Made by a program: the position numbers and the translations under genes | The notes under the pieces: model-generated | The model's input: only the letters and a program-made list of their open reading frames with translations | What the model was told of the DNA's origin: nothing | The model's database searches: none | In this document: positions 1 to 13,116 of the stretch, in pieces | Layout: each line of letters begins with the position of its first letter | Numbering within the stretch: position 1 is the stretch's first letter | Origin: a virus | Lineage: Duplodnaviria > Heunggongvirae > Uroviricota > Caudoviricetes | IMG/VR virus record: IMGVR_UViG_2667527839_000010 | Direction: 5' to 3' (one strand) | Length of the DNA: 14,104 nt

Positions 1-1263
1 ATGAAACTCAACGCTCGCCAGATAGAGACCGCAAAGCCGAAAGAGAAAGCTTATAAAATGGCTGATGGAGGTGGTTTGTATCTTGAGGTCTCCCCTAAAG
101 GTTCTAAGTACTGGCGCATGAAATATCGCCGCCCCTCTGACAAAAAGGAAGATCGACTCGCTTTTGGTGTATACCCGACGGTCACTTTGGCTGAAGCGCG
201 GGGTAAGCGCGATGCAGCAAAGAAATTGTTGTCTCAGGGTATTGACCCCAAAGCTGAGCAAAAGGGGGCACAAGCTGAAATTGAGGGGGCATATTTATTT
301 GAAACTATCGCAAGGCAATGGCACGCAAGTAACCTTACTTGGAGCGAAGATCATAGCCGTCGTGTTCTGCTGACACTTGAGCAGTATATTTTCCCCTCGA
401 TAGGTCAAATCGATGCCAGAACGTTGAGAACCAGCCAGCTTCTCAATCCAATCAAAGCTGTCGATACGGCGGGTAAACATGATGTCGCGCAGCGACTGAT
501 GCAGCGCGTAACCGCAATTATGCGTTTTGGTGTGCAGAATGACCTGCTTGAATCAAATCCTGCATGCGATATGGCTGGAGCGCTTTTAAGCGTTAAAGCA
601 ACCCACCACCCAGCACTACCCCCAAAAAGAATCCCTGAGCTTCTTGAAAGACTATCACGCTATAAAGGGCGACTAATGACACGGCTTGCCGTTGAATTAA
701 CGCTACTCACATTTATACGTTCAAGTGAGATGCGTTTTGCTCGCTGGAGTGAGGTTAACTTTGAACGAAGCGAGTGGACAATACCCGGAATTCGTAAGCC
801 TATTCCCGGCGTAAAACACTCTGAGCGTGGGATGAAGATGAAAACTGAACATATTGTTCCGCTTAGCAAACAAGCATTTGATATTTTTAAACGTTTACAT
901 GCCTTGAGTGGTAAAGGTGAGGTTATATTTCCCAGCGATCATGATCCTAAAAAAGTAATGAGTGAAAATACAGTAAATAACGCCTTACGTGTAATGGGAT
1001 ATGATACGAAAACTGAAGTATGTGGTCATGGGTTTAGAACTATGGCGCGTGGTGCGCTAAGTGAGTCGAAACTATGGAATGATGATGCCATTGAAAGACA
1101 GTTAAGCCACGTTGAACGAAAAAATGTGAAAGGTTCATATATGCATACTTCCGAATATCTTGAAGAAAGAAGATTAATGCTGCAATGGTGGGCTGATTAT
1201 ATTGATGCTAATAAGAATGGATCTGTCACACCATATGATTTTGCGCGTATGCATGGAAAATAA
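1..1263 (+). CDS. int: Tyrosine recombinase, P4-type integrase (complete, 420 aa)
   Basis: ORF begins at window base 1 with N-terminus MKLNARQIETAKPKEKAYKMADGGGLYLEV typical of P4-family integrases; C-terminal catalytic region has HGFRTMARGAL (HxxR) and a downstream Tyr region (GSYMHTSEY). TAA stop at 1261-1263. Nested ORFs 164-373, 295-480, 660-869 are frame shadows. Confidence 0.9.
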   Translation: MKLNARQIETAKPKEKAYKMADGGGLYLEVSPKGSKYWRMKYRRPSDKKEDRLAFGVYPTVTLAEARGKRDAAKKLLSQGIDPKAEQKGAQAEIEGAYLFETIARQWHASNLTWSEDHSRRVLLTLEQYIFPSIGQIDARTLRTSQLLNPIKAVDTAGKHDVAQRLMQRVTAIMRFGVQNDLLESNPACDMAGALLSVKATHHPALPPKRIPELLERLSRYKGRLMTRLAVELTLLTFIRSSEMRFARWSEVNFERSEWTIPGIRKPIPGVKHSERGMKMKTEHIVPLSKQAFDIFKRLHALSGKGEVIFPSDHDPKKVMSENTVNNALRVMGYDTKTEVCGHGFRTMARGALSESKLWNDDAIERQLSHVERKNVKGSYMHTSEYLEERRLMLQWWADYIDANKNGSVTPYDFARMHGK

Positions 1264-1292
1264 TTACCATTGGGGGCTGCGGAGAGATTTAA

Positions 1293-1931
1293 ATGAATAA
1301 TACTCAATTTGATAATAATTTGTTTTATTTTAATAGGTTAACTTACATAACGCCACACGAAGTGGCGCTTGCTATGAATGGTTTTGACTATGATACCGAA
1401 AATGATGAATTGACTGAGGTTCAATTAAAAGAGGTTATTAGATTAAGAAAGGCAATAACCAGAAATCTACAATTAATTAATGAATATAAAAACGTATCCG
1501 CCACGCAAAAAGTGGAGGCGAACTTATTATTAACTGCCGCTTATATCTTTCAGAGGGAAGGTATTGTACCTGTGGAGATTAAGGAGAGAATTGAGAACGC
1601 ATTACGACAACAGGTAAAAAATAAAGATTGGAGTGATATTCTAATGACGTTAGGAGGAAGTGAATTATATGAAGTTGGTAAAAAATTAAGGAGTAATGGT
1701 AGAGGGCAGTACAGAAAAGATGATGAGGATAATTATAGTTGTAAATTAATTTATTTACTAATTGAATTGCTTAAGAGACATGGAAAGGTAAGTTATAGCG
1801 ATAATAGTGTTATATATAATGATATTGTTTCTTTTTGTAATGAGAATGAGATTCTAATGAAAGGGGTTAAAAAAGCTACGTTTTATAAGAAAATAAAGCT
1901 GGGGAAAGACATTATAAAATACGGAGAGTAA
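1293..1931 (+). CDS. Hypothetical protein (212 aa), AT-rich, no recognisable motif; candidate accessory gene
   Basis: ATG at 1293 preceded by GGAGAG (1281-1286, 6 nt spacing). Strongly AT-rich and Lys/Asn/Ile-rich compared with flanking int and alpA, suggesting separate acquisition. No family assigned from sequence. Confidence 0.55.
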   Translation: MNNTQFDNNLFYFNRLTYITPHEVALAMNGFDYDTENDELTEVQLKEVIRLRKAITRNLQLINEYKNVSATQKVEANLLLTAAYIFQREGIVPVEIKERIENALRQQVKNKDWSDILMTLGGSELYEVGKKLRSNGRGQYRKDDEDNYSCKLIYLLIELLKRHGKVSYSDNSVIYNDIVSFCNENEILMKGVKKATFYKKIKLGKDIIKYGE

Positions 1932-1996
1932 ATTTATTAATTTTCTGGCTATCTCTCAATAGAAGGGCCACAAGAGGCTCTAACGGGCTATAGGGG

Positions 1997-2044
1997 GTAA
2001 TACGATGTAATATGGTGTAATACTGTGCTAATTCCTAGGTAATA
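1997..2044. repeat. Helically phased GTAATA direct repeats (3 copies at exact 10-bp spacing plus a 4th)
   Basis: GTAATA at 1997, 2007, 2017 and 2039 (gtaatacgat / gtaatatggt / gtaatactgt ... gtaatatgaa), in the intergenic region between the AT-rich ORF and alpA. Confidence 0.35.
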
Positions 2045-2307
2045 TGAATCGTTAAAATGCAATAATACCTTTTGACATATGATTTTTTGATTTTCCATCC
2101 TATCCATATGAATTCTATTGATTTTATTTTTTTTGTGCATTTCCTTCTCTCCGTGTTCTTTCATATGAATATTACTTCTTTTTTCAGTGGAGATTATTGT
2201 TTTTCAATAGAATCAATATTTGTCTTAATAGATTCCATTATCACTAGAATCACTTTTTCCCAGTGTTTAAAGTCACCGTGAACTTAAGTAGAACACGGAG
2301 TAACAAG

Positions 2308-2538
2308 ATGGAATATGCAAACAGCTTTTCAGATAATCAGACTCTTATCTCAGCAAAAGAGGTCTTAAGACGCGTTCAGCGTAGCAAGGCATGGCTTTAC
2401 AAACAGCTTGCAAACAATACATTTCCCCGTCCGGTGAAAATAGGAACTCGTGCAATTTCATTTGTTGAAAGCGAAGTTGATCACTGGATTCAAGAGCAAA
2501 TATATGCCTCTCGTGGTGAGCGATATGAAAATCACTAA
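2308..2538 (+). CDS. alpA: AlpA/Vis-family small DNA-binding regulator (excisionase-like), 76 aa
   Basis: MEYANSFSDNQTLISAKEVLRRVQRSKAWLYKQLANNTFPRPVKIGTRAISFVESEVDHWIQEQI matches the AlpA/Vis HTH pattern. ATG 2308 preceded by ACGGAG (2295-2300). The ORF track start at 2263 lacks an RBS and lies in AT-rich promoter DNA. Confidence 0.8.
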   Translation: MEYANSFSDNQTLISAKEVLRRVQRSKAWLYKQLANNTFPRPVKIGTRAISFVESEVDHWIQEQIYASRGERYENH

Positions 2539-2543
2539 TAAAA

Positions 2544-2571
2544 AAGCCCGACATAATGAATTTGTGGGCTT
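2544..2571. terminator. Hairpin between convergent alpA and the RHH gene, flanked by A/T runs
   Basis: aagccc (2544-2549) pairs with gggctt (2566-2571), with partial extension; the A-run at 2538-2543 reads as a T-run on the minus strand, so it most plausibly terminates the minus-strand RHH transcript. Confidence 0.4.
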
Positions 2572-2634
2572 AAAAATATTGTCGCTTACTGAAATTAACA
2601 TGGAAACAGAGAGAACGTCTGTTGGCTTCTCTAT

Positions 2635-2820
2635 TCAACTTCCTTGCTCTGGCTTATTTTTCCTGCGCTGTCGGCGTTTAATCTCGCCTTTTACAGCCGT
2701 AACAATGAATTGCGCTTTCGTTTCTCCATCTTCAAGGTTGCTTTCTAATTCTGCAACTACATCATGTGGGAAACGAGCATTAAGTTGCTGCGACTTGTTG
2801 TTAGTTGAACTCGTTGCCAT
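2635..2820 (-). CDS. Small ribbon-helix-helix (Arc/MetJ/CopG-like) DNA-binding protein, 61 aa
   Basis: MATSSTNNKSQQLNARFPHDVVAELESNLEDGETKAQFIVTAVKGEIKRRQRRKNK: short beta-strand (LNARFPHDVV) followed by two helices, basic tail. Strong SD on minus strand (AGGAG, 8 nt before ATG at 2820). Confidence 0.55.
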   Translation of the reverse strand: MATSSTNNKSQQLNARFPHDVVAELESNLEDGETKAQFIVTAVKGEIKRRQRRKNKPEQGS

Positions 2821-2841
2821 TACTGGATCTCCTCGCGTTAG

Positions 2842-2931
2842 GTGCGATTCAGTATATGCAAAAAAAATGATAATAAAAAGCTTGAAGTGCGATTCACTTA
2901 AGGGTAGCTTTAAAATTAAAGGTGCGATTCA
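2842..2931 (+). promoter_or_regulatory. Three direct repeats of GTGCGATTCA in the divergent promoter region (putative operator/iteron)
   Basis: GTGCGATTCA at 2842-2851, 2887-2896 and 2922-2931 (extended consensus aGGTGCGATTCAc), 22-110 bp upstream of the RHH start and upstream of the early operon. Confidence 0.5.
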
Positions 2932-3007
2932 CCTTGTGAGTGCGAAGCCCGACAGTGCAGCAACACTAACCGGGCTTCTGACCAATCCGCTAAATGAGGT
3001 AACGAAG

Positions 3008-3184
3008 ATGGCTAAACAGAAGTGTACCTGGTTATTTGCGGCGATCAACCGCAGTCAACGCAATGCCCGTCCTGTGATGTTAAGGATCACCGCAGATAAC
3101 GAGCGGTCAGCGCGGCGCAGACTTGCCCCGGACTATGTACTGAGCTTTGCCGGGCGCATTCCCTGCGGAGGTGAACATGCGTAA
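3008..3184 (+). CDS. Possible small leader ORF (58 aa) of the early operon
   Basis: ATG 3008 with GAGG at 2996-2999; its stop (TAA 3182-3184) overlaps the next start (ATG 3177), suggesting coupling. This is the only credible part of ORF-track 2450-3184, which is otherwise antisense to the RHH gene. No motif recognised. Confidence 0.3.
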   Translation: MAKQKCTWLFAAINRSQRNARPVMLRITADNERSARRRLAPDYVLSFAGRIPCGGEHA

Positions 3185-3536
3185 TTATCCGCACCCCGGC
3201 GAACGCTGGCAGCATGAACGTGGCTGGACGGTCACGATTATCCGATTAATAGAAGCCTCGCCCTCTGTGGCGCTGGTTAATCCTGAATTCAGCTGTGAAG
3301 TGCTGATACGTCATGACAGCGACAACCAGCTTTCTTCCTGCCCTCTGGCATGGTTTGAACAGCGGTATACGCGCCTGTTTGATGTACCGCTCTTGAAGCC
3401 TGCACCAGCTCCTGCTGGCGGTAGTGGTTCCGGCCCGCTGACACTGCATCCGTCTGTGCTATTTATCCGCTGGCGGGAGCGTAGCATACGGCGTTCTGCT
3501 GAGCCTGACGACGGTCACTATTCAAAGTTTCTCTGA
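3177..3536 (+). CDS. Hypothetical protein (119 aa), early operon
   Basis: ATG 3177 preceded by GGAGGTG (3167-3173). The track start at 3147 is a TTG without RBS. No family assigned. Confidence 0.6.
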   Translation: MRNYPHPGERWQHERGWTVTIIRLIEASPSVALVNPEFSCEVLIRHDSDNQLSSCPLAWFEQRYTRLFDVPLLKPAPAPAGGSGSGPLTLHPSVLFIRWRERSIRRSAEPDDGHYSKFL

Positions 3537-3567
3537 CAAAATACCGCTGAAAACGGAGTAATCCACG

Positions 3568-3852
3568 ATGAATATTTCAAACGGGCACAACGGTGCTCAG
3601 GGCCACACTTTGCCTGAAAAACACAATACCGGTGCTTTTGCCTATGGGTTGTCAGAGGACAGTTTCGGAAAACTGACCCGCGCAAGAAATGCCTGCGACA
3701 TGCTCCAGCTTCTCTTTTCTGAATACCCGTCTCAGGCCGGAGCACTGGACGCTGGCTGTGCGCATGGTGTCGCCGCGCTGATGGAGTACCTGCTGGCAGA
3801 TTTGACGGATATTGCACACAGCTGCGCACTGATTGAAGGAGGTGCCAGATGA
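3568..3852 (+). CDS. Hypothetical protein (94 aa), early operon
   Basis: ATG 3568 with GGAG at 3555-3558; stop overlaps the next start (ATGA at 3849-3852). Confidence 0.65.
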   Translation: MNISNGHNGAQGHTLPEKHNTGAFAYGLSEDSFGKLTRARNACDMLQLLFSEYPSQAGALDAGCAHGVAALMEYLLADLTDIAHSCALIEGGAR

Positions 3853-4232
3853 ACCAGCCGCAGGTTTCCATTTTCCCGGCAGAAATGACCACCGCGCTTT
3901 ACCGGCGGGCTATTGCTTCAGCATGGCGGCAGAAAATGCTGAACGAAACTGGCAGTGATCAGTATGGTCCTCACAGCCTGACGGTGGAGCGTATTGAAAT
4001 GGCCATTGCGCTGCATATCGAGTGCGTACTGATTAACGAGTACGGCGAAGCACAGGGCGCCGCTGCCGCGCTGGCACTGCTGACTGACATGCTGGAGCCG
4101 TCACTGCTGACCGCGCCGCCGGTACTGACCGCGCGCGGCTGTGAAGTGATGGCGGAGATGTACCGCACGCTTCCGGCGGCCTTTGATGACTTCTGCAGTA
4201 CCGGTGTGACGTTGTATCAGGGGGAAGTATGA
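3849..4232 (+). CDS. Hypothetical protein (127 aa), early operon immediately upstream of the primase
   Basis: ATG 3849 preceded by AGGAGG; stop overlaps the primase start (ATGA at 4229-4232). Confidence 0.65.
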   Translation: MNQPQVSIFPAEMTTALYRRAIASAWRQKMLNETGSDQYGPHSLTVERIEMAIALHIECVLINEYGEAQGAAAALALLTDMLEPSLLTAPPVLTARGCEVMAEMYRTLPAAFDDFCSTGVTLYQGEV

Positions 4233-6901
4233 CAATACAGACGGTTACGCAGATTTCAGCTGCCGCACGGGGGAAATGGCCCGTTATTCTCCAGATGCTG
4301 CGTATTGATGTACCTGAAAACGGCAGGCACGGTCCCTGCCCGAAATGTGGGGGCAAGGATCGTTTTCGCCTTGATGACCTTGACGGGCGCGGGACGTGGA
4401 TCTGCAGCCAGTGTGGCAATGGTGACGGTCTGGATCTGGTTAAGCTCGTAACCGGTTACAGCGTCAGAAAGGCTGCGCAGGAGGTGGCGCAGGTGCTTAA
4501 TGTGCCGGATGTGCAGGAACTGCCTGTTAAGCCTGCCAGACAAAAAGCCCCTAAACGCGACATGGGGCTTACCGTGGCGGCGCTGATGAAAGAGAGCCAC
4601 ACGGGAGAAAGCGCCTATCTGACAGGAAAAGGGTTCGCCGGATACCCGGCCTCTCTGACCGGAAGCGTGCAGCATATCAGCGGTAAGGATTTTCCTGCCG
4701 GTTCCCTGCTGTTACCACTCACGACCAACACCGGAGCCGTGACTGGTGCACAGCTTATCGCCCCGACGGGTGAAAAAAGCATACTGCCCGGCAGCACGAT
4801 GAAAGGCGCGTTTGTGTCGCTCAGCCCGTTACCGTCTGAACCACCGGTACAGGTGGTGATTACCGAAGGTTACGCTACGGCGCTGACGGTAAGTCAGCTC
4901 ACTGCCGGATGCGTAGTGGCTGCCATATCTGCGGGCAACCTGCCCAATGTGGCGCAGTCGCTGCGGGCACGCTGGCCTGAGGTAAAAATTATCATCGCCG
5001 GTGATAACGATTTTCAGGACGGAGGTGAGAATCCCGGCAGAGCCTTTGCTGAACGGGCGGCAAAAGCTGTTGGCGGCTGGATGACGCTGCCACCGGGAGA
5101 GATTAAGGCCGACTGGAATGACTTCCATCGGGAGCACGGTATTACCCGCGCCCGTGAAGCCTTTCGTAACGGTCTGGTGCTGTGCGGGGAGGGCCGCACG
5201 CAACTGCCGCACGGGTTCCGTCTTACCCAGGAATATCTCTGGTATGAAAAGCAGGTACAGCGCAACGGTGAGACGGAGATCCAGAACGTCAAAATATGCA
5301 GCCCGCTGCGCGTGACGGCAATCACCTGCGATGCCGATGGCGGTAACTTCGGACGACTGCTGGAATGGGAAGATACGTGGGGTGAGTGTCGCCGCTGGGC
5401 GATGCCGATGGAAATGCTGAGCGGCAGTGGTGAGGAACTGCGCCGGGTACTGCTGGTTAACGGGCTGTCTTATATCAGCACCACCGGTGAGGCACGCGCA
5501 CGCCTGATGGAATATATCTCACTGTGTAAACCGGAACGCCGCGTGACCTGCGTCAGTCGTACTGGCTGGCATGGTCAGGTTTACGTCCTGCAGGATGAGG
5601 TCAGCGGTGAAGGTGCAGAGGGTGTCATTCTCCAGACCACTTCCGTGCAGGGGCGTGATTTCCGCGTGTCGGGCACAACAGAGGAATGGCGGGAGCATGT
5701 ATCCCGCTACTGTACCGGCAACTCCCGCGTGGCATTTGCTGTCAGCCTGGCCTTTGCTGCACCACTGTTACGGCTGGTTGGTATGGACGGCGGCGGCTAC
5801 CACCTCAAAGGGGAATCGACAGACGGTAAGACCACCACCATGAAAGCAGCAACCTCCGTCTGCGGCGGGCCTGACTACTGGCAGACATGGCGGGCCACCG
5901 GCAACGCGCTGGAGGGATGCGCCAGCCGCCGCAACGATGCCGCCATGATGCTTGATGAGATCCGGGAAGTTGACGGACGCGAGGCAGGCAATATCGCCTA
6001 CATGCTGGCAAACGGTCAGGGCAAGGGCCGTGCCGGTACGGACGGTGAGCTGCGTACCCGTAAGCAGTGGCGCCTGTTGTTCTTTTCAACTGGCGAGTTG
6101 TCTCTGACCGAACATGCGGCAAAGGCCGGTGAGCGTACTTTTGCCGGGATGGAAGTCAGGATGATCCAGATCCCCAGCGATTCCGGGAAGTTTGGCGTTT
6201 TTGAGGAGCTGCACGGCTTCGACAGCGGCAAGGCTCTGGCAGAGCATCTTGAATGGGCCACGTCCTGCTACTACGGTTCGCCGTTCCGGGAGTGGCTGAA
6301 AGCACTGACCGCTGATCTTAACGGACTAACGGCACAGGCAAAATCGCTGATGAAGGAATATGCTGCCGCCCTGACTCCGAAAGATGCAGGCAATCAGGTG
6401 GGCCGGGCTGTGAACCGCTTTGCTCTGGTGGCGATGGCAGGTGAACTGGCAACCCGTCTGGGTATCACCGGCTGGCCTGAGGGTGAAGCACTGCGGGCAA
6501 CCCGCGTCTGCCTGAACGCATGGCTGAAAGATCGCGGGCACACCGCCAATCAGGAAGATATCGCCGCACTGGAGCAGGTTCGCAGTTTCTTTACCGCGAA
6601 TCAGTACAGCCGCTTTGCAGACTGGTATGACGAGCGCAACCGCCCCGGCAATATGGTGGGCTGGCGCAGGGTGGAGAAAGGCAGTACCGCGCAGGGCACG
6701 GAAGCTGTCACTACGTTCTATGTCATGCCGTCCGGCTGGAAAGAAATCTGCAGGGGATTTGACCCGCGCAAGGTGGCGCGTCTGTGCGCAGATCGTGGAT
6801 ACCTGCTGCCCTCCACTGATGGCAAACTCCAGACAACCATTCGCCCGCCAGAGATGAATCCCCGCAGGCTCTATGTCTTCAACAGCGAGGTGCCGGGTTA
6901 A
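4229..6901 (+). CDS. Replication primase-helicase, P4 alpha-like (zinc ribbon + TOPRIM + Walker A/B NTPase), 890 aa
   Basis: N-terminal CPKCGGKDRF...WICSQCG (CxxC..CxxC); TOPRIM-like VVITEGYATALTV and IIIAGDNDFQDGG; Walker A HLKGESTDGKTTTM and Walker B-like MMLDEIREV. Uniform coding-like composition over 2.7 kb; internal antisense ORFs are shadows. Confidence 0.9.
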   Translation: MTIQTVTQISAAARGKWPVILQMLRIDVPENGRHGPCPKCGGKDRFRLDDLDGRGTWICSQCGNGDGLDLVKLVTGYSVRKAAQEVAQVLNVPDVQELPVKPARQKAPKRDMGLTVAALMKESHTGESAYLTGKGFAGYPASLTGSVQHISGKDFPAGSLLLPLTTNTGAVTGAQLIAPTGEKSILPGSTMKGAFVSLSPLPSEPPVQVVITEGYATALTVSQLTAGCVVAAISAGNLPNVAQSLRARWPEVKIIIAGDNDFQDGGENPGRAFAERAAKAVGGWMTLPPGEIKADWNDFHREHGITRAREAFRNGLVLCGEGRTQLPHGFRLTQEYLWYEKQVQRNGETEIQNVKICSPLRVTAITCDADGGNFGRLLEWEDTWGECRRWAMPMEMLSGSGEELRRVLLVNGLSYISTTGEARARLMEYISLCKPERRVTCVSRTGWHGQVYVLQDEVSGEGAEGVILQTTSVQGRDFRVSGTTEEWREHVSRYCTGNSRVAFAVSLAFAAPLLRLVGMDGGGYHLKGESTDGKTTTMKAATSVCGGPDYWQTWRATGNALEGCASRRNDAAMMLDEIREVDGREAGNIAYMLANGQGKGRAGTDGELRTRKQWRLLFFSTGELSLTEHAAKAGERTFAGMEVRMIQIPSDSGKFGVFEELHGFDSGKALAEHLEWATSCYYGSPFREWLKALTADLNGLTAQAKSLMKEYAAALTPKDAGNQVGRAVNRFALVAMAGELATRLGITGWPEGEALRATRVCLNAWLKDRGHTANQEDIAALEQVRSFFTANQYSRFADWYDERNRPGNMVGWRRVEKGSTAQGTEAVTTFYVMPSGWKEICRGFDPRKVARLCADRGYLLPSTDGKLQTTIRPPEMNPRRLYVFNSEVPG

Positions 6902-6933
6902 GGCTTTGCGTGAGTCTTATTTATTAAGGGTAA

Positions 6934-7123
6934 CAGGTGAAACAGGTGGAACAACCGTATTTTACAGGGCTGAACCTGTTCCACCTTCTGAAATAGTGAG
7001 GTGGAACAGATGTAACGCCAGCCAATCCGCTGTTCCACCTTGTTACCCGCGATGTTCCACCGGTGCAGTGTATATAAATGCCTTATAAAACAAAGCTGTA
7101 ACACATGTTTCATCTGTTCCACC
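6934..7123. repeat. Iteron cluster: six perfect copies of TGTTCCACC in both orientations (putative ori/crr for the primase-helicase)
   Basis: TGTTCCACC at 6977-6985, 7031-7039, 7053-7061, 7115-7123; its complement GGTGGAACA at 6945-6953 and 7000-7008; degenerate copies at 6934-6944 and 7041-7048. Lies immediately 3' of the primase gene. Confidence 0.6.
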
Positions 7124-7211
7124 GCATCAGGGACATAAAGCAGACTGAAACAGAGGGCATTTTTATCTGGCTGGCTTTCATAGCCACGTCTGAATAACCG
7201 CAAGCGTCCGT

Positions 7212-7267
7212 TGTGCCAGCCACCACACACTGAGCACCGGTAGTGTGCTTGTGTCAGCCACGACACA
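7212..7267 (+). promoter_or_regulatory. Two tandem TGT-N12-ACA dyads upstream of the late operon (Ogr/Delta-type activator site candidates)
   Basis: TGT(7212-7214)-N12-ACA(7227-7229) and TGT(7250-7252)-N12-ACA(7265-7267), within 20-bp direct repeats ttgtgCcagccacCacacaC / ttgtgTcagccacGacacaA (17/20 identical), 35-90 bp upstream of the Sid-like start. Confidence 0.4.
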
Positions 7268-7301
7268 ATTGACGTAACGAACTAACCCGACAGGAGAAGT
7301 C

Positions 7302-8045
7302 ATGAACAACACCGCAGTGAATAACAACCTTTCCACTTTTCCGGCTGTAACGCAGCGGGCACTGGAAACCATGAACACAGCCAGAAACGCATGGCTTGAA
7401 GCACGTCGTCAGCAGAAAGCGGCAGCGGATAATATTGCGACAATCCGCCAGCGTCGCGCTGAAATGGAAGCCACGACGAACACACTGAATGAGGAGTGGC
7501 GCACGCTGTTTCGTGAAAGTCAGGGCGTGGTCTCAAAGGAAATGAAAAAACTGCGCACGGAAATTGCGCTGGGACGAGAAACGCTTGAGGATTTTGATGA
7601 GCTGCTGGCGGCTCAGGAAAGCGAAAATGCACTTTTGCCGCAGAAAGCTGCAGAATTAGCCGGAAAGTATATCCACGCGCATAACATTCTTGTGGATATT
7701 CGCGCAAAACAAATCTGGGAGGATTTTATGCAGTCGCATGGAAAAGCGCTTATTCAGACGCTGAGCCTGCTTAAATCCACAATGGGCCGGGAAGCCAGTG
7801 CCGTTGTGGGTGTGGTGAATTCAGTTAATGACCCGGACACAGTGCTGAAAGACTTTATTCATAAACATATCACCAGACCGGCTCTGGCTAACGATGCGAT
7901 GCCTGAGCAGGACCCGGTGTTTAAACTGGCGGGAGTTGCCCCGGATTATGCGGCGCGTCTGGATTTCAGTAATCAACTCTCTCCGGCAGCTATGCATAAA
8001 ATTAAGGTTCGTCAGGAACTTGCTGAGAAGGAGAAAGCAGTATGA
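7302..8045 (+). CDS. sid: Sid-like (P4 external scaffold / size-determination family), 247 aa
   Basis: ATG 7302 with AGGAG at 7292-7296. Size close to P4 Sid; shares N-terminal and central motifs with the Psu-like gene that follows (NAWLEARRQQKAA..., EDFMQSHGKALIQTL), consistent with the Sid/Psu paralogy. Family assignment is from remembered motifs and context, not alignment. Confidence 0.55.
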   Translation: MNNTAVNNNLSTFPAVTQRALETMNTARNAWLEARRQQKAAADNIATIRQRRAEMEATTNTLNEEWRTLFRESQGVVSKEMKKLRTEIALGRETLEDFDELLAAQESENALLPQKAAELAGKYIHAHNILVDIRAKQIWEDFMQSHGKALIQTLSLLKSTMGREASAVVGVVNSVNDPDTVLKDFIHKHITRPALANDAMPEQDPVFKLAGVAPDYAARLDFSNQLSPAAMHKIKVRQELAEKEKAV

Positions 8046-8593
8046 CGGCCCGAGGCACGCCTGACCAGGCACTTACCAGTTTTCGGAATGCCCGTATTCT
8101 GTGGGCCGGACATAATGAGAGCCGAAAAGCCATTGAACAACAGATAACATCTCTCCTCGCTGCCACAGAAAAACCAGCAGATTATGCCCGACAGCTCGAA
8201 TTACTGCGGGAACGTCTGGATGTGCTGAAATGGCAAATTAACTGTGCTGCGCGCGAATGCATTTACTCGCAGCATTTACTGATGGAGGCCTGCACAGAAG
8301 CCGCTCTCAGCAATTTTATGCAGGCGAATGGGGCAGCCCTGACATCTGCACTGGCTCCGTTCCTGAAGGGGCGCGGAGGGGTTGACGTTGCGTCCCGTAT
8401 ATTACGCAGTGCTCTGGTTCGCCAGCTGGCAATAACACCGCCTGAAATTGCCGGGGATTATCGTGAGATCCTGGATGAATCCGGTTTGATGCCTGACCCC
8501 GGGATGATTCGTGATTGCCAGGGTTCTTACACCCCGGCACAACATCTGCGTTTTCAGCAACGCCTGAATGACATTAACGATATACAGGAGTGA
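8042..8593 (+). CDS. psu: Psu-like (polarity suppression / capsid decoration family), 183 aa
   Basis: Start overlaps the Sid-like stop (ATGA at 8042-8045). Motifs LELLRERLDVLKWQINCAARECIYS, FMQANGAALTSALAP and YTPAQHLRFQQR resemble P4 Psu as I recall it. Confidence 0.6.
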   Translation: MTARGTPDQALTSFRNARILWAGHNESRKAIEQQITSLLAATEKPADYARQLELLRERLDVLKWQINCAARECIYSQHLLMEACTEAALSNFMQANGAALTSALAPFLKGRGGVDVASRILRSALVRQLAITPPEIAGDYREILDESGLMPDPGMIRDCQGSYTPAQHLRFQQRLNDINDIQE

Positions 8594-8598
8594 TATTA

Positions 8599-8871
8599 AT
8601 GGCACTTAAATGTCCGGAATGCGGTACAGTTGCACACGCCAGAACAGCAGCCTATGAAGCTCCGTCAGTTAAACGCTCGTGGTATCAGTGCCAGAATCTG
8701 GAATGTTCCTGCACATTTACGGCACTGGAGAGTGTGGATAAGATAATCATGAAACCCCGGCGCAATGAACAGCTATCAGACAAAGCACAATCCCCGGAAA
8801 AACAACAGAAAACGCTCAATCGCTATGGCTCCGCGTCAAAACTGTCAAGCCGTCAGCAGATTCCTGTCTGA
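8599..8871 (+). CDS. ogr: Ogr/Delta-family zinc-finger late transcription activator, 90 aa
   Basis: MALKCPECGTVAHARTAAYEAPSVKRSWYQCQNLECSCTF has the CxxC-N22-CxxC arrangement and HART/YQCQN signature of P2 Ogr / P4 Delta. ATG 8599 with AGGAG (8586-8590); the track GTG at 8590 overlaps the Psu-like stop. Confidence 0.85.
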   Translation: MALKCPECGTVAHARTAAYEAPSVKRSWYQCQNLECSCTFTALESVDKIIMKPRRNEQLSDKAQSPEKQQKTLNRYGSASKLSSRQQIPV

Positions 8872-9100: not shown

Positions 9101-9278
9101 TAACGGTGATAATTGTGATGTTGCGATATCAAGAGAGATATAAGAATGCTGTATTCAATAAGGTATTGCTTTCAATTGTTAGATTTATTTTTGTTTAAAT
9201 GTCAATGGTTTAGGTGGTTGCTGGCAGCCAGTACGCTTACTTATTGAAAATCTCGCATCTTTTGCTATCCTAACCCTA

Positions 9279-9479
9279 CCTTTACGCGCGGGATAACAGG
9301 TTTATCCTTGTCGGGCGTTTCGCCAGACACTAATTTATTGTGGACATTTAGGGTTGCGCTTTAGCACTTTCAGCAAGATCCTTCATGCCACTGCGTTCCA
9401 TTCAGGATCTTGCTGAAAGTCTAAAGCGCATCCTTTAGGTAAAGGGGTCGAAGGTGGCTGGTTAGCCACCTTTTCTTTT
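9279..9479 (+). ncRNA. Candidate retron msr-msd non-coding RNA (boundaries tentative)
   Basis: Structured leader upstream of the effector-RT operon. Possible promoter: TTGAAA (9244-9249), 16 bp, TGcTATCCT (9263-9271). Short hairpins ggataa-caggt-ttatcc (9291-9307) and gggcg-ttt-cgcc. Long hairpin with arms 9356-9382 and 9404-9429 (26/27 bp complementary, one bulge, 21-nt loop) as candidate msd. Possible short a1/a2 pair cctttac (9279-9285) / gtaaagg (9439-9445), only 7 bp. No covariance model was run. Confidence 0.4.
9453..9479 (+). terminator. Intrinsic-terminator-like hairpin between the ncRNA region and the effector gene (possible attenuator)
   Basis: 7-bp stem ggtggct (9453-9459) / agccacc (9464-9470), 4-nt loop, then TTTTCTTTT (9471-9479); the effector SD (GGAG 9481-9484) and start (9499) follow directly. 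Confidence 0.5.
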
Positions 9480-9498
9480 GGAGTAGGGGGTCACAAGG

Positions 9499-10485
9499 GT
9501 GAGTGATTCTGCATATATGAATGCATTACAAGAGCAGTTTGGAGATTTGAAATATTCAAATTTCACTGTTCAGTTCATGCCTCCTATTATTTTTGTTTGT
9601 GGTGGGCCGATAAATTCCACTCCAATGAGTGTACGAGACCACATATTTACTTATGTAGCAGGCCACAAACCTGAATTGTCAGATTCTCTTATTTTAGCTG
9701 AGAACTTCCATGACTACTTCAGAGAGGGGGCATATTCAGATCTAATGAGCTTTGAAGATGATATTGCAAATATTTCAACATTAGTTGTTATCTGTTTAGA
9801 AAGTGCAGGTTCGTTAGTTGAGCTTGGATTATTTGTTAATAGGAAGTCTCTAGCTCAAAAATTGCATGTAGTCGCACCATTTGAGGAGATTGAGGGAAAT
9901 GAACGAAAAAATATTCCTGCTAGATCTTCTTTTATATATTTAGGCCCTTTGGAGTATCTTAAAAAAATAGATGAGGCCTCAGTATCAGTTTATCCATGGC
10001 CAAAATCGGATCGTATGAAATATGATGAGGTTGAGCTTATCTACCATGATATTCATTCTAGATTAAAACGTGTAAAAAAAACGGAGCGATATAACCCTGA
10101 AAATACTGGGCACCTAGCTATATTGATTTACGAAATAATCCTTTTATCAGAACCAATCAAGAAAAGCGAAATAGAGTGGGCACTATACTGTATGGATATA
10201 GATGTGCCACAAAAAATAATATCTCGTTTACTTTATTTGCTTGAAAAGATGAAATTAACCTCATCATTATCTTACAGTGGTACAGACTACTTTTATTCCC
10301 GAGGGCATAGAGAGAGTAAACTTAAATTTGGTATCAGTGCTAGTGGTAAAATAAAGGATTCTATGAATATTAAGGTTGCAATCCGACAATCTTACTTAAG
10401 TATGGATGCTAAAGATATGGACGAGACTGCAAAAAAAAGGAAAAATGCTCTAAATCAAATCAATATCGTGCGTGGAGGGGCTTAG
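9499..10485 (+). CDS. Retron effector: nucleoside 2-deoxyribosyltransferase-like (NDT-like) domain protein with a C-terminal putative DNA-binding region, 328 aa
   Basis: N-terminal PIIFVCGGP and STLVVICLESAGSLVELGLFV fit the NDT fold (Rossmann-like strand, then a conserved Glu in a VELG context); C-terminal half is a separate, helix-rich region. GTG start at 9499 with GGAG/AGGGGG upstream; alternative ATG at 9517. Stop TAG 10483-10485 abuts the RT start. Confidence 0.8.
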   Translation: MSDSAYMNALQEQFGDLKYSNFTVQFMPPIIFVCGGPINSTPMSVRDHIFTYVAGHKPELSDSLILAENFHDYFREGAYSDLMSFEDDIANISTLVVICLESAGSLVELGLFVNRKSLAQKLHVVAPFEEIEGNERKNIPARSSFIYLGPLEYLKKIDEASVSVYPWPKSDRMKYDEVELIYHDIHSRLKRVKKTERYNPENTGHLAILIYEIILLSEPIKKSEIEWALYCMDIDVPQKIISRLLYLLEKMKLTSSLSYSGTDYFYSRGHRESKLKFGISASGKIKDSMNIKVAIRQSYLSMDAKDMDETAKKRKNALNQINIVRGGA

Positions 10486-10486
10486 A

Positions 10487-11419
10487 ATGGAGTTGCTAAG
10501 TTATATTTCAAAAGGTCTTTTTCTTAGCGAAGAAGAGGCTAAAAGGTATATTGTTACTATTCCACGCAGATATAAAATTTATCCTATCGCCAAAAGAAAT
10601 GGTAATGGATATAGATTAATTGCACAACCAGCTAGGCAAGTTAAAGCCTTACAGAAGGTAGTAATCAATCATATGTTGGCTAATTTGAAAGTTCATGAAA
10701 ATGCTTTCGCTTATGAAGCCGATAAAAGTATTAGATCTAATGCGTTAATGCATTGTAATAATGATTATTTGCTTAAAATGGATTTTAAAAACTTTTTTAT
10801 GAGTATCAAACCCCATAATCTTTTATCTGTCTTAAAAGATTATGGCGTTGAACTAACTGATACTGATATCTTTGTTCTTAAAAATCTTTTCTTCTGGAAG
10901 TTAAGAAGAAATAGCCCATTACGCCTAAGTGTTGGAGCACCTTCTTCTCCCATTATTTCAAATGCAGTAATGTATTTCTTCGATGAGGAAATATCGAAAA
11001 GATGCAAGGATTTGGATATTACCTACTCAAGGTATGCTGATGATCTTACGTTTAGCACCAAAGTCAAAGGAGCTTTATTTGATGTTCCTAAGTTAGTAAG
11101 GGAAGTTCTTAACGTAGTAAATCTTAGGAATATTAAAATAAACCATGAGAAAACAGTTTTTACCTCAAGGAAGTTTAATAGACATGTAACTGGTGTAACT
11201 ATTACGACTGATGGTTATTTGTCTTTAGGTCGTGATAGAAAGCGTCTTTTAAGAAGTAAAATACATTATTACGTGTGTGGGGTTTTATCTGAGAAAGAAA
11301 TTCTAACCCTTAAAGGAGAATTAGGCTATGCGAAATTTATTGAACATAAATTCTTTACCTCCATGATTAAGAAATATGGGGATGATGTAATCAGCGAAAT
11401 TTCAAAATATGAAATTTAA
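10487..11419 (+). CDS. ret: Retron-type reverse transcriptase, 310 aa from ATG 10487 (315 aa if GTG 10472)
   Basis: Retron RT motifs: YRLIAQPARQVKALQKVV; LLKMDFKNFFMSI (cf. DxxxFFPSI); SVGAPSSPIISNAVMYFFD (cf. QGAPTSP); YSRYADDLTFS (YADD); NHEKT; VTGVTIT (retron-specific VTG). GGAGG at 10474-10478 precedes ATG 10487. AT-rich composition matches the effector gene. Confidence 0.9.
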   Translation: MELLSYISKGLFLSEEEAKRYIVTIPRRYKIYPIAKRNGNGYRLIAQPARQVKALQKVVINHMLANLKVHENAFAYEADKSIRSNALMHCNNDYLLKMDFKNFFMSIKPHNLLSVLKDYGVELTDTDIFVLKNLFFWKLRRNSPLRLSVGAPSSPIISNAVMYFFDEEISKRCKDLDITYSRYADDLTFSTKVKGALFDVPKLVREVLNVVNLRNIKINHEKTVFTSRKFNRHVTGVTITTDGYLSLGRDRKRLLRSKIHYYVCGVLSEKEILTLKGELGYAKFIEHKFFTSMIKKYGDDVISEISKYEI

Positions 11420-11664
11420 TAGCTTGTTGTCCTAATAAATCAGCATGACTTTATCTAGCTTGCGCAAGGTTGGTTCAGAGGTTTGGTTGTTCTGGTTAGG
11501 CTCTGTAAGACGGAACCTAACTAGGCAACTCTATCTTGCTAATTCATTTATTGTGCTAGTTAGCAACAATAAGATTTTGTTGGGGGCACAAAATGGGGCA
11601 CAAGTCATAAGCTATAAAATTTTTATCATCATGTTCAATGAGTTATATAGTTATTCTATTCCGG

Positions 11665-11696
11665 CCTTCGCACCTTCGCACCTTCGCACCTTCGCA
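11665..11696. repeat. Perfect tandem repeat (CCTTCGCA)x4 within a tRNA-Leu 3'-end-like sequence (putative degenerate attR)
   Basis: ccttcgca at 11665-11672, 11673-11680, 11681-11688, 11689-11696, preceded by ttctattccgg and followed by ccatcgg. The context TTCtAtTCCGGCCTTCG-CACC...A resembles the 3' end of E. coli tRNA-Leu(CAA) leuX (..TTCGAGTCCGGCCTTCGGCACCA) as I remember it. Confidence 0.85.
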
Positions 11697-11712
11697 CCAT
11701 CGGAACATCAAT

Positions 11713-11735
11713 AGACGTCAACGGACGTTTTTTTT
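11713..11735 (+). terminator. Short hairpin plus T8 run downstream of the retron/att region
   Basis: acgtc (11715-11719) / gacgt (11724-11728), 4-nt loop, then 8 T (11728-11735). The stem is short, so confidence is moderate. Confidence 0.4.
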
Positions 11736-11901
11736 ATGACTGAAATCCGCGCCACACAAGGCTTTTCGCTATTTTTCGCTCAACCTAAGTCAACCTACAT
11801 CAACTTACTGATGTGGATACAGCTACAGCTGCGGCTATATCCCGATTCGATAATGTTTGTACCCACACAAAACCCTTGAAAGGCTACAAGGCTGAAATTG
11901 T

Positions 11902-12087
11902 CTAAACCATAGAGATGATTTTTATGATCCAGTCTTTCTCTTGTTGAGATAGTTCCAGTTTGCTCACTCGTGTTAAGAAGGTATTGATCACCTGAACATC
12001 CGAATTGGTGAGCCTATTTAATAGAGCGGGTGGTATACCTTTACTAACAATTGCTTTGCGGTGACTTTCGTAGTTTTTATTACTCAT
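11902..12087 (-). CDS. Hypothetical small protein (61 aa)
   Basis: Open frame only; no motif recognised; may be a fragment together with the upstream 77-aa ORF. Confidence 0.3.
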   Translation of the reverse strand: MSNKNYESHRKAIVSKGIPPALLNRLTNSDVQVINTFLTRVSKLELSQQEKDWIIKIISMV

Positions 12088-12152
12088 TGGTGATCCTCAA
12101 ATATCATTGTATGGCGGCATTGATCGTTTCCAGCAACCTTTACTTACTCACT

Positions 12153-12386
12153 TCAAACTGCATCCTCGTAGACTGTTCCACTACAATAATCGAAAAGGCG
12201 CGGATGTCCATTCAGGTATCCCGCTAATACGTATAGCAATAACAATGGTTTATGCGGTGCGCGCTGTTCACCCTTATGCCAGATTTTTATATTGGCAATT
12301 GCCTGCTGTAGCGATTTACTGGAAGCCATTGATATCCCTGGCAGTGAAATAATTGCGATCATGCTCGCAAATTTTCTGCTGTTCAA
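12153..12386 (-). CDS. Hypothetical small protein (77 aa), hydrophobic N-terminus
   Basis: Open frame only; overlapped on the + strand by an implausible 81-aa ORF (12107-12352); could be a gene remnant. Confidence 0.25.
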   Translation of the reverse strand: MNSRKFASMIAIISLPGISMASSKSLQQAIANIKIWHKGEQRAPHKPLLLLYVLAGYLNGHPRLFDYCSGTVYEDAV

Positions 12387-12465
12387 GCCTGCAAGTGAAG
12401 ATATATTACCTTGATCTCATTTGTTTTTTTGCTGCTTGTTCTGAGAACGTATAAGGACATTCTCC

Positions 12466-13116
12466 ATGAATAAACTCCCCGATCATCTTCCTCGGCGGTA
12501 TATCATCAAAGCTATTCATTTATGGGATGCGGGAGAAACTCATCAGTTCCAGCCTGCACGGTTGTATGAGATTGAATATCATGGCCGACGTTACCCCTCG
12601 AAGGCGATTGCTGGTATCGCAGCGACATTGATGACGGGGACGCAATTTACCCCTGCGGATTTCACCGGCGGAATAAAATCTAAATGCGTCAAGCTACTTA
12701 TAGATCAGGGATTTCATATTCATCAGGATAAAGCCGCTGCGGCTCCCATAGCCGATGTTCTGTTCCCGGATGAGTTGCCGTCGCAGGGGACCTACGTTGA
12801 AGGTGCGGCGATAAAGGTGACGGTAAACCGCTATGAACGCGATAAAAAAGCTCGCGAGAAAGCAGTCGAACATCACGGATGCCAGTGCAACGTATGCGGC
12901 GTTGATCTGGTGAAGATCTATGGCGATATCGCTGAGGGTTTTATCCATATGCATCACCTGGTGCCGCTTTCAGCCATTAAAGAGGATTACCAGCTGGATC
13001 CAGTTAATGATTTACTTCCTGTGTGCCCTAATTGCCATGCGATGCTGCACCGGCGCAAACCACCGTTTACGCCGGAGGAGTTAAAAGCGCTGATGGATGC
13101 GAATAAATCAAATTAA
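12466..13116 (+). CDS. HNH endonuclease family protein (McrA-like C-terminal HNH nuclease with an N-terminal putative DNA-recognition domain), 216 aa
   Basis: C-terminal CQCNVCGVDL...FIHMHHLVPLS...DPVNDLLPVCPNCHAML matches the HNH zinc-finger nuclease motif. ATG 12466 with AAGGA (12453-12457). Confidence 0.8.
   Translation: MNKLPDHLPRRYIIKAIHLWDAGETHQFQPARLYEIEYHGRRYPSKAIAGIAATLMTGTQFTPADFTGGIKSKCVKLLIDQGFHIHQDKAAAAPIADVLFPDELPSQGTYVEGAAIKVTVNRYERDKKAREKAVEHHGCQCNVCGVDLVKIYGDIAEGFIHMHHLVPLSAIKEDYQLDPVNDLLPVCPNCHAMLHRRKPPFTPEELKALMDANKSN

Follow-up and report, generated by a model that had tools for sequence, protein, structure and literature searches.

Results

Genes and proteins of the module

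The stretch of viral DNA analysed here (the window; 14,104 nt, IMG/VR record IMGVR_UViG_2667527839_000010, assigned to the Caudoviricetes) carries at positions 9279–11419 three elements whose order can be read directly: a structured msr-msd non-coding RNA (ncRNA), the gene of an RcaT-type effector and the gene of a retron reverse transcriptase (RT; Table 1). This order equals that of Retron-Sen2/St85 and Ec73, in agreement with a preliminary description of the locus, made from the letters alone, which had recognised the layout of an NDT-effector retron. On its gene order, protein families and RNA fold, the module is a complete three-part retron of type II-A1 (the St85/Sen2 family), a type that in the classification of Mestre unites RTs of clade 1 with ncRNAs of type IA/IIA1 and holds Sen2/St85, Vc81 and Ec73. 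RefSeq already names both proteins as members of the retron St85 family, and the allele appears to be one that has been studied, Retron-Eco9.

Table 1. Features of the retron module and of the surrounding satellite (positions in the window)
Feature	Position	Strand	Basis
P4-like satellite backbone	1–8871	+	Pfam, PHROGs, RefSeq
Tyrosine integrase	1–1263	+	Pfam, PHROGs, RefSeq
Alpha primase/helicase (Zn-ribbon, Toprim, DUF927)	4229–6901	+	Pfam, PHROGs, RefSeq
Sid/Psu-like	7302–8045	+	Pfam, PHROGs, RefSeq
Psu	8042–8593	+	Pfam, PHROGs, RefSeq
Delta (Ogr/Delta zinc-finger protein)	8590–8871	+	Pfam, PHROGs, RefSeq
Candidate sigma-70-like promoter (TTGAAA, 16 nt spacer, TG-n-TATCCT)	9244–9271	+	Consensus scan, 9/12 plus extended -10 TG
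Structured msr-msd ncRNA	9279–9445	+	Consensus fold with covariation
a1 inverted repeat (CCTTTAC), followed by predicted branching G 9286	9279–9285	+	Paired with a2 in 13/13 aligned relatives
msr, two RNA stem-loops (9290–9308, 9309–9329)	9290–9329	+	Helices 2 and 3 of consensus fold
msd, long template hairpin (31 pairs, paired GATC site)	9348–9438	+	Helix 4 of consensus fold
a2 inverted repeat (GTAAAGG)	9439–9445	+	Consensus fold
Terminator-like hairpin (10 bp, GAAGGTGGCT/AGCCACCTTT) and T-tract	9450–9479	+	Sequence; recurs in relatives
Effector/toxin, RcaT-type (N-terminal NDT-like domain, Glu108, C-terminal winged-helix domain)	9499–10485	+	Profiles, AlphaFold, Foldseek
Retron RT (clade 1, St85 family)	10487–11419	+	PADLOC, NCBIfam, Pfam RVT_1, motifs
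Probable attR (TCCGGCCTTCGCACC..CACCA, like tRNA-Leu 3' end)	11661–11703	+	Resemblance by eye

Taken from the ATG that RefSeq uses (10487; the longest mechanically called open reading frame, ORF, starts instead from a GTG at 10472), the RT has 310 amino acids, and with this start it is separated from the effector stop by the 1-nt gap that had been noted before. Of the marks by which retron RTs are recognised, the NAxxH region appears here as NALMH (residue 85), the YADD catalytic box lies at residue 183 and the VTG triplet at residue 234. The two best PADLOC profiles are RT_II-A (9.7e-121) and RT_I-A (1.1e-112), scores against retron RT profiles of that collection reach 401 bits, and NCBIfam retron_St85_RT gives 334 bits (cut-off 235; 6e-100), whereas a group II intron RT model gives only 45 bits (cut-off 300), Drt2 37 bits (cut-off 390) and Drt3a 32 bits (cut-off 200). 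Profile scores, which we used in place of a tree to position the RT among retrons, thus group it with these as predicted. The nearest solved RTs are those of type I-A retrons (PDB 9n69, Ec78/Eco7 and Ec83/Eco4; E 4e-83 to 2e-65), with Ec86 much further off, which is consistent with Mestre type II-A1. Type I-A retrons share their ncRNA type with II-A1, but their effectors are an SMC-like ATPase and an HNH nuclease rather than an NDT-like protein, and neither of these is found in the module.

The effector (328 amino acids from a GTG at 9499, with VELG at residue 107) matches PADLOC NDT_II-A (1.6e-87) and NCBIfam NF038232 (STM3845_fam, "retron St85 family effector protein"; 224 bits, cut-off 100, 3.7e-66), which bears out the NDT-like protein of this length proposed earlier. 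A profile search had been suggested as a check on the module; in it, both proteins match retron models in PADLOC as well as in NCBIfam, and both span their profiles end to end. The effector has no match in our local copy of Pfam-A; the family PF28093, found on all effector homologues, occurs only in precomputed annotations. By sequence its sole solved relative is the Ec86 effector (E 2.6e-6, 16–19% identity). An AlphaFold model made with 24 homologues (pLDDT 86.9, pTM 0.87) gives, in a Foldseek search of the PDB, chains of the Retron-Eco1 effector as its top three matches (8qbk_E and 7xjg_J among them), all full-length and with E ~1e-10, so that structure prediction returns an NDT-like fold. 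The C-terminal part of the model resembles winged-helix regulators. A C-terminal domain had been pointed out before and is indeed present, but it is not the extra that it was taken for: the winged helix is full-length in all homologues, occurs also in the Retron-Eco1 effector structure and is standard in this effector family.

The block LESxGSxVELG is invariant in 24 effector homologues, down to 40% identity, and in the alignment with the deposited inactive Eco1 effector E106A, Glu108 within this block falls on the mutated residue; judged from this alignment, Glu108 is the conserved catalytic Glu of the effector. A solved structure of the homologous Eco1 effector shows it ADP-ribosylated, and this suggests chemistry of the N-glycosidase type.

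The start of the effector is ambiguous between the GTG that RefSeq uses and an ATG at 9517 (Met7; 322 amino acids). Published residue numbers for RcaT-Eco9 fit the second; relatives that lack Met7 keep the sequence MSD(S/T)AY, which favours the upstream GTG. In a Klebsiella locus (L033, 6989–7922), the RT gene of a 90%-identical module is split into ORFs of 165 and 152 amino acids next to an intact effector gene. If the split is real, the toxin there would be left without its antitoxin.

The ncRNA

That the region upstream of the effector is highly structured, as had been said of it, is supported both by its own folding energy and by covariation. The 220 nt preceding the effector fold at -92.2 kcal/mol (z = -6.6), with none of 200 shuffled sequences folding as well, and an alignment of 13 sequences gives a consensus fold of 52 pairs that is 96% paired and has compensatory double changes at 15 of the 52. 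The aligned sequences are regions upstream of effector homologues from Klebsiella, Pantoea, Dickeya, Providencia, Proteus, Citrobacter, Yersinia, Rahnella, Aeromonas, Photobacterium, Vogesella and an uncultured Enterobacterales genome. No shuffled alignment out of 500 reaches the observed percentage of pairing, number of compensatory pairs or covariation score, and when pairing partners are slid along the alignment only 33–50% still pair. Searched with a covariance model built from the alignment, 38 of 39 related loci have a match immediately before the effector, each full-length and ending some 50–90 nt before the effector start, in a range of hosts that reaches Nitrosomonas and Burkholderia. 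The ncRNA matches no Rfam family at gathering thresholds.

The fold has the parts expected of a retron. The 7-bp stem between a1 and a2 covaries at its outermost pair (CG in seven relatives, UA in four and UG in two), and the columns CTTTACG, the last of them the G that follows a1, are invariant. The two msr helices are 94–95% paired with four covarying pairs; GTCGGGCGTTTCGCCAGAC in the msr region is nearly invariant across the alignment, and a conserved single-stranded stretch follows the msr stem-loops as far as 9347. The msd helix is 96% paired and has compensatory changes at ten pairs.

To predict the ends of the multicopy single-stranded DNA (msDNA) we used the Eco1 ncRNA layout as a guide, in which, according to the Eco1 primer sequences, an unpaired G lies between the first template base and a2. 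On this basis the branching nucleotide is predicted to be G9286 and the first template base A9437, so that the msDNA would begin 5'-TAAA, its 5' end lying at, or 4 nt inside, 5'-TAAAGGATGCGC. Relatives have TCTA at the first-template position, corresponding to 5'-TAGA, and the St85 msDNA is reported to start 5'-TAGA. The limits of the template were estimated by aligning the window to an E. coli locus of Sen2 type (L043, described below), whose msDNA was assumed to be 85 nt long as in St85; the reverse-transcribed template would then extend over about 9341–9437 (~97 nt), and the msDNA would be about 93 nt long after the four-base trimming by exonuclease VII (Exo VII) that has been described for retron RT clade 1.

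The msd stem contains a GATC site. The sequence GATCCT is invariant across the alignment; among 40 related loci, 32 have GATC within the msd and nine have two such sites. In the window the GATC is fully paired with a second one (9375–9381 with 9404–9410), giving a double-stranded Dam site; in most close relatives the opposite strand reads AGGAGC, which leaves a mismatch at the A. For Sen2, methylation of a GATC in the msDNA has been published as a trigger.

Relation to Retron-Eco9

Retron-Eco9 comes from E. coli NILS-16 (Bobonis et al., bioRxiv 10.1101/2020.06.22.160168) and has the same order of msr-msd, rcaT and RT gene. None of the papers and supplements examined, those of the RNase H1 paper included, contains its sequence, and literature searches with the RefSeq accessions and sequence strings of the module gave no match. 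The comparison was therefore made through published residue positions and percentages.

Four residues of RcaT-Eco9 are named in a 2026 paper (Ser155, Ser181, Ser254 and Ser292), and the effector in the window has serines at each of these positions plus six (Ser161, Ser187, Ser260 and Ser298). This is the sole constant offset within ±30 that fits; the effector of the Sen2-type locus fits none, and Ser187 is present only in homologues at least 87% identical. An offset of six equals a start at Met7, and 322-residue forms occur in the same 90%-identity cluster; likewise the published numbering implies 322 amino acids as against the 328 of RefSeq. Beyond this, no difference from Eco9 can be demonstrated in a comparison made without the Eco9 sequence.

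The published identities between Eco9 and Sen2 are 43% for RcaT, 49% for the RT, 58% for msd and 85% for msr. Since the St85 RT itself was not picked out among the top 120 RT homologues, we used as a proxy for Sen2 the locus L043 (E. coli MFDS1022581, NZ_CP169399, 2976–5106), an St85-family retron adjoining mnmE and a frameshifted integrase gene. Its effector has 320 amino acids with Asp296, its msDNA would start TAGA, and the published RcaT-Sen2 is orf320 with D296. With this proxy and with assumed boundaries, the identities of the window to L043 are 43.3% (effector), 48.2% (RT), 57–58.5% (msd) and ~77% (msr), so that three of the four values agree with the published figures. The L043 type of retron is itself rare, with weak matches in only about eight complete E. 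coli genomes.

The module occurs in 156 of 5426 complete E. coli genomes (about 3%), in 154 of them at 99% identity or more, and the 90%-identity protein clusters have members in Salmonella and Klebsiella as well. Whether this variant had been described was left open in the preliminary description; the RefSeq annotation and the likeness to the published Retron-Eco9 answer that it has.

A P4-like satellite as carrier

Over the retron the window is 100% identical to E. coli strain 81 (NZ_CP088131), in which the matching segment starts just after a tRNA-Leu gene, upstream of int, and ends in the nan/fim region. The genes preceding the module are those of a P4-like satellite (Table 1), an assignment based on protein families because megablast against a phage collection gave no match to the retron or to the satellite backbone. 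Delta lies on one side of the retron and an attR-like tRNA-Leu remnant on the other, and the GC content falls from 50–60% in the backbone to 31–36% across 9500–11500, as is typical of acquired cargo. In P4-like satellites the variable locus beside cos has been identified as a defence hotspot that includes retrons (Rousset et al.), and the earlier view of the module as cargo accords with both the satellite core genes and this slot.

The remnant is probably attR with an expansion of octamer repeats, to judge by eye from its resemblance to the tRNA-Leu 3' end, which reads GTCCGGCCTTCGGCACCA in the matching genome; the tandem repeat occupies 11665–11702 and consists of 4.8 copies of CCTTCGCA. An exact-repeat search for attR with the tRNA-Leu 3' end yielded only an irrelevant 13-mer, and a P2/P4 cos sequence was unmatched in the window at up to three mismatches. 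An ORF at 11445–11714 was rejected as a gene, as it has no family match and overlaps the attR-like repeat.

Homologous modules lie between Ogr/Delta and integrase genes in satellites of Dickeya, Providencia, Proteus, Yersinia, Rahnella and Citrobacter, and outside satellites in Klebsiella, Pantoea and Aeromonas. The satellites in Dickeya and Providencia (L036 and L037, 1–5300) encode a P2-type capsid protein (Phage_cap_P2), the scaffold GPO and Ash, and in this are unlike the E. coli element.

Sequences on either side of the ncRNA

The candidate promoter stops about 8 nt before the ncRNA. The scan that found it was not enriched overall in comparison with shuffled sequences, and the site is a candidate by virtue of its position only.

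Directly after a2, and before the effector gene, lies a GC-rich hairpin with TCTTTT behind it. In 31 of 40 related loci, the Sen2-type L043 included, the spacer between ncRNA and effector contains a hairpin with a T-run, as compared with 0–1 of 40 for control segments of equal length inside ORFs, and between lineages the position of the hairpin is kept while its sequence is not. We suggest, tentatively, that it may be a real intrinsic terminator or attenuator, although the odds are somewhat against this. Were it one, the ncRNA would be made mostly as a separate and abundant transcript, with limited read-through into rcaT and the RT gene, and the hairpin would set the ratio of antitoxin to toxin. 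We found no description of a terminator-like element in retrons in the searchable literature, an absence that is no proof of newness.

Discussion

Interpretation of the locus and its alternatives

We put at roughly 80% the probability that the window carries a functional type II-A1 retron, Retron-Eco9 or a near-identical allele, in the cargo slot of a P4-like satellite at tRNA-Leu. Several points weigh against this reading. The identity with Eco9 is indirect, being drawn from residue positions and percentages rather than from an alignment of sequences; the msr value of ~77% falls short of the published 85%, for which a difference in boundaries may be responsible; L043 was taken as Sen2 by effector length, D296 and the 5'-TAGA start only; the locus in the window is known here from its sequence alone; and what RcaT-type effectors do biochemically is, according to the literature (2026 T7 kinase paper), unclear.

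Some of these same points would favour a genuine St85-family (II-A1) retron with the same mechanism that is nevertheless a separate, experimentally uncharacterised allele or lineage and not Retron-Eco9: the link to Eco9 consists of four residue positions and three percentage values, the msr figure deviates, and alleles 87–90% identical in Klebsiella and Pantoea have the same length and the same four serines. We regard this as rather unlikely, given that Eco9 comes from E. coli, that in complete genomes of this species the module predominates among St85-type retrons that have an effector, that nearly all copies there are at least 99% identical, and that the other E. coli type examined does not pass the serine comparison. 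A different doubt concerns the identification as a retron at all. A decayed element or one with a non-retron RT (of a group II intron, a diversity-generating retroelement, an abortive-infection Abi system or a defence-associated DRT system), preceded by a hairpin by chance, might be thought of when Rfam offers no RNA match and Pfam only a generic RVT_1 domain, but it can hardly be reconciled with retron-specific profiles at 334–401 bits against 45 for the group II intron RT and 32–37 for Drt2 and Drt3a, with two ORFs that cover their profiles completely, or with an RNA that shows compensatory changes and keeps its place in 38 of 39 loci. There is also a slim chance that the module mainly serves the satellite, as a toxin/antitoxin for addiction and stabilisation or as a weapon against competing helper phages, rather than defending the host against lytic phages. 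Its toxin/antitoxin behaviour, its repeated linkage to P4-like or primase-Delta-integrase satellites beside the attachment site, and the low GC that marks it as mobile cargo would all suit such a role; on the other hand, phage defence by Eco9 has been measured against T2 and T7, close relatives are also found on the chromosome outside satellites in Klebsiella and Aeromonas, and in Pantoea on an element that is mobilisable, and serving the satellite and defending the host are not exclusive of one another.

The family of the retron, the outline of its mechanism, its NCBI annotation and the residence of retrons in the P4-like satellite hotspot have all been published, and the allele itself is very probably the one studied as Eco9. 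The value of the present analysis lies in a reference anatomy, comprising a1 and a2, the branching G, the msd limits, the catalytic Glu and the start-codon issue, and in the placement of the module in a P4-like satellite at tRNA-Leu in the E. coli genomes that carry it; in the Eco9 literature examined we found no statement on the genomic context of Eco9 itself.

Proposed mechanism

A promoter just upstream of 9279 would transcribe the msr-msd RNA, whose msr stem-loops would be bound by the RT; priming from the 2'-OH of G9286 beside the a1/a2 stem, the RT would reverse-transcribe the msd hairpin, giving a single-stranded DNA some 90–100 nt long, and host RNase H and Exo VII would mature the msDNA. 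The complex of RT and msDNA would then act as the antitoxin, binding the RcaT-type effector and keeping it inactive, until the msDNA is degraded, modified or sequestered by phage functions and the NDT-like toxin, presumably of N-glycosidase type, is set free to arrest the infected cell in an abortive infection. In this scheme, the genes, motifs, family, RNA fold, effector fold and context were computed here; the toxin/antitoxin behaviour, the triggers, the range of phages and the need for RNase H and Exo VII come from the literature on Sen2 and Eco9; and we infer the precise termini of the msDNA and what the toxin attacks biochemically.

For Retron-Eco9 and Sen2 it has been reported that the effector on its own is toxic and that the cognate RT together with msDNA neutralises it, that neutralisation requires mature msDNA, made by way of RNase H and Exo VII, and that the RT gives specificity. 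Production of msDNA has been reported for Eco9, and RecE degrades the msDNA and triggers Eco9, while RacC blocks the toxin. Eco9 gives modest defence against T2 and also defends against T7, whose kinase counters it by phosphorylating RcaT.

Comparison with other retrons

Retron-Sen2/St85 of S. Typhimurium (RcaT, STM3845; RT, STM3846) belongs to the same NCBIfam families in both proteins and agrees with the module in gene order, in the IA/IIA1 architecture of the ncRNA and in the GATC in the msd stem. The two differ in that the proteins of the window are only ~43% (effector) and ~48% (RT) identical to those of the Sen2-type locus; the msd template, as estimated above, is longer (~97 nt against 85), the predicted msDNA start is TAAA and not TAGA, and the a1/a2 stem has one extra C-G pair. 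Sen2 is chromosomal, whereas the retron in the window lies on a P4-like satellite.

Such a satellite, phiR73, is also the carrier of Retron-Eco3/Ec73, which is likewise of type II-A1 and has an ORF between msr-msd and the RT gene. These likenesses were drawn without the Ec73 sequence, and Ec73 is a different retron with a 73-nt msDNA. The phage phiR73 integrates at a different tRNA gene.

Retron-Eco1/Ec86, known as a filament of RT, msDNA and effector (7xjg, 8qbk), has the same two-domain effector fold, the same catalytic Glu in an ESxGSxxELG motif and the same tripartite logic. Its distance from the module is much greater, as the weak similarity of the effectors in sequence (above) already indicates: its RT is of clade 9 rather than clade 1 (E 1e-29 between the two) and the retron is of type II-A3, not II-A1. 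The gene order of Retron-Eco1/Ec86 also differs.

Other features of the window

Right after the integrase gene, in a stretch of 33–35% GC (1001–2500), lies an ORF of 212 amino acids on the plus strand (1293–1931), which has no match in Pfam, NCBIfam or PADLOC and falls only into phrog_30524, a group of unknown function; the satellite may have a second cargo slot here. The alpha primase/helicase gene of strain 81 (L001, 6000–7802) is 870 bp shorter than that of the window, which indicates an internal deletion in the strain 81 copy of the satellite. Beyond the attR-like site, an HNH endonuclease gene (12466–13116) has weak matches to type IV methyl-directed restriction enzymes, and next to it the RefSeq record shows part of a pseudogene for a phosphorothioate-DNA-binding restriction endonuclease; this region (11900–13116) may hold remnants of another defence island.

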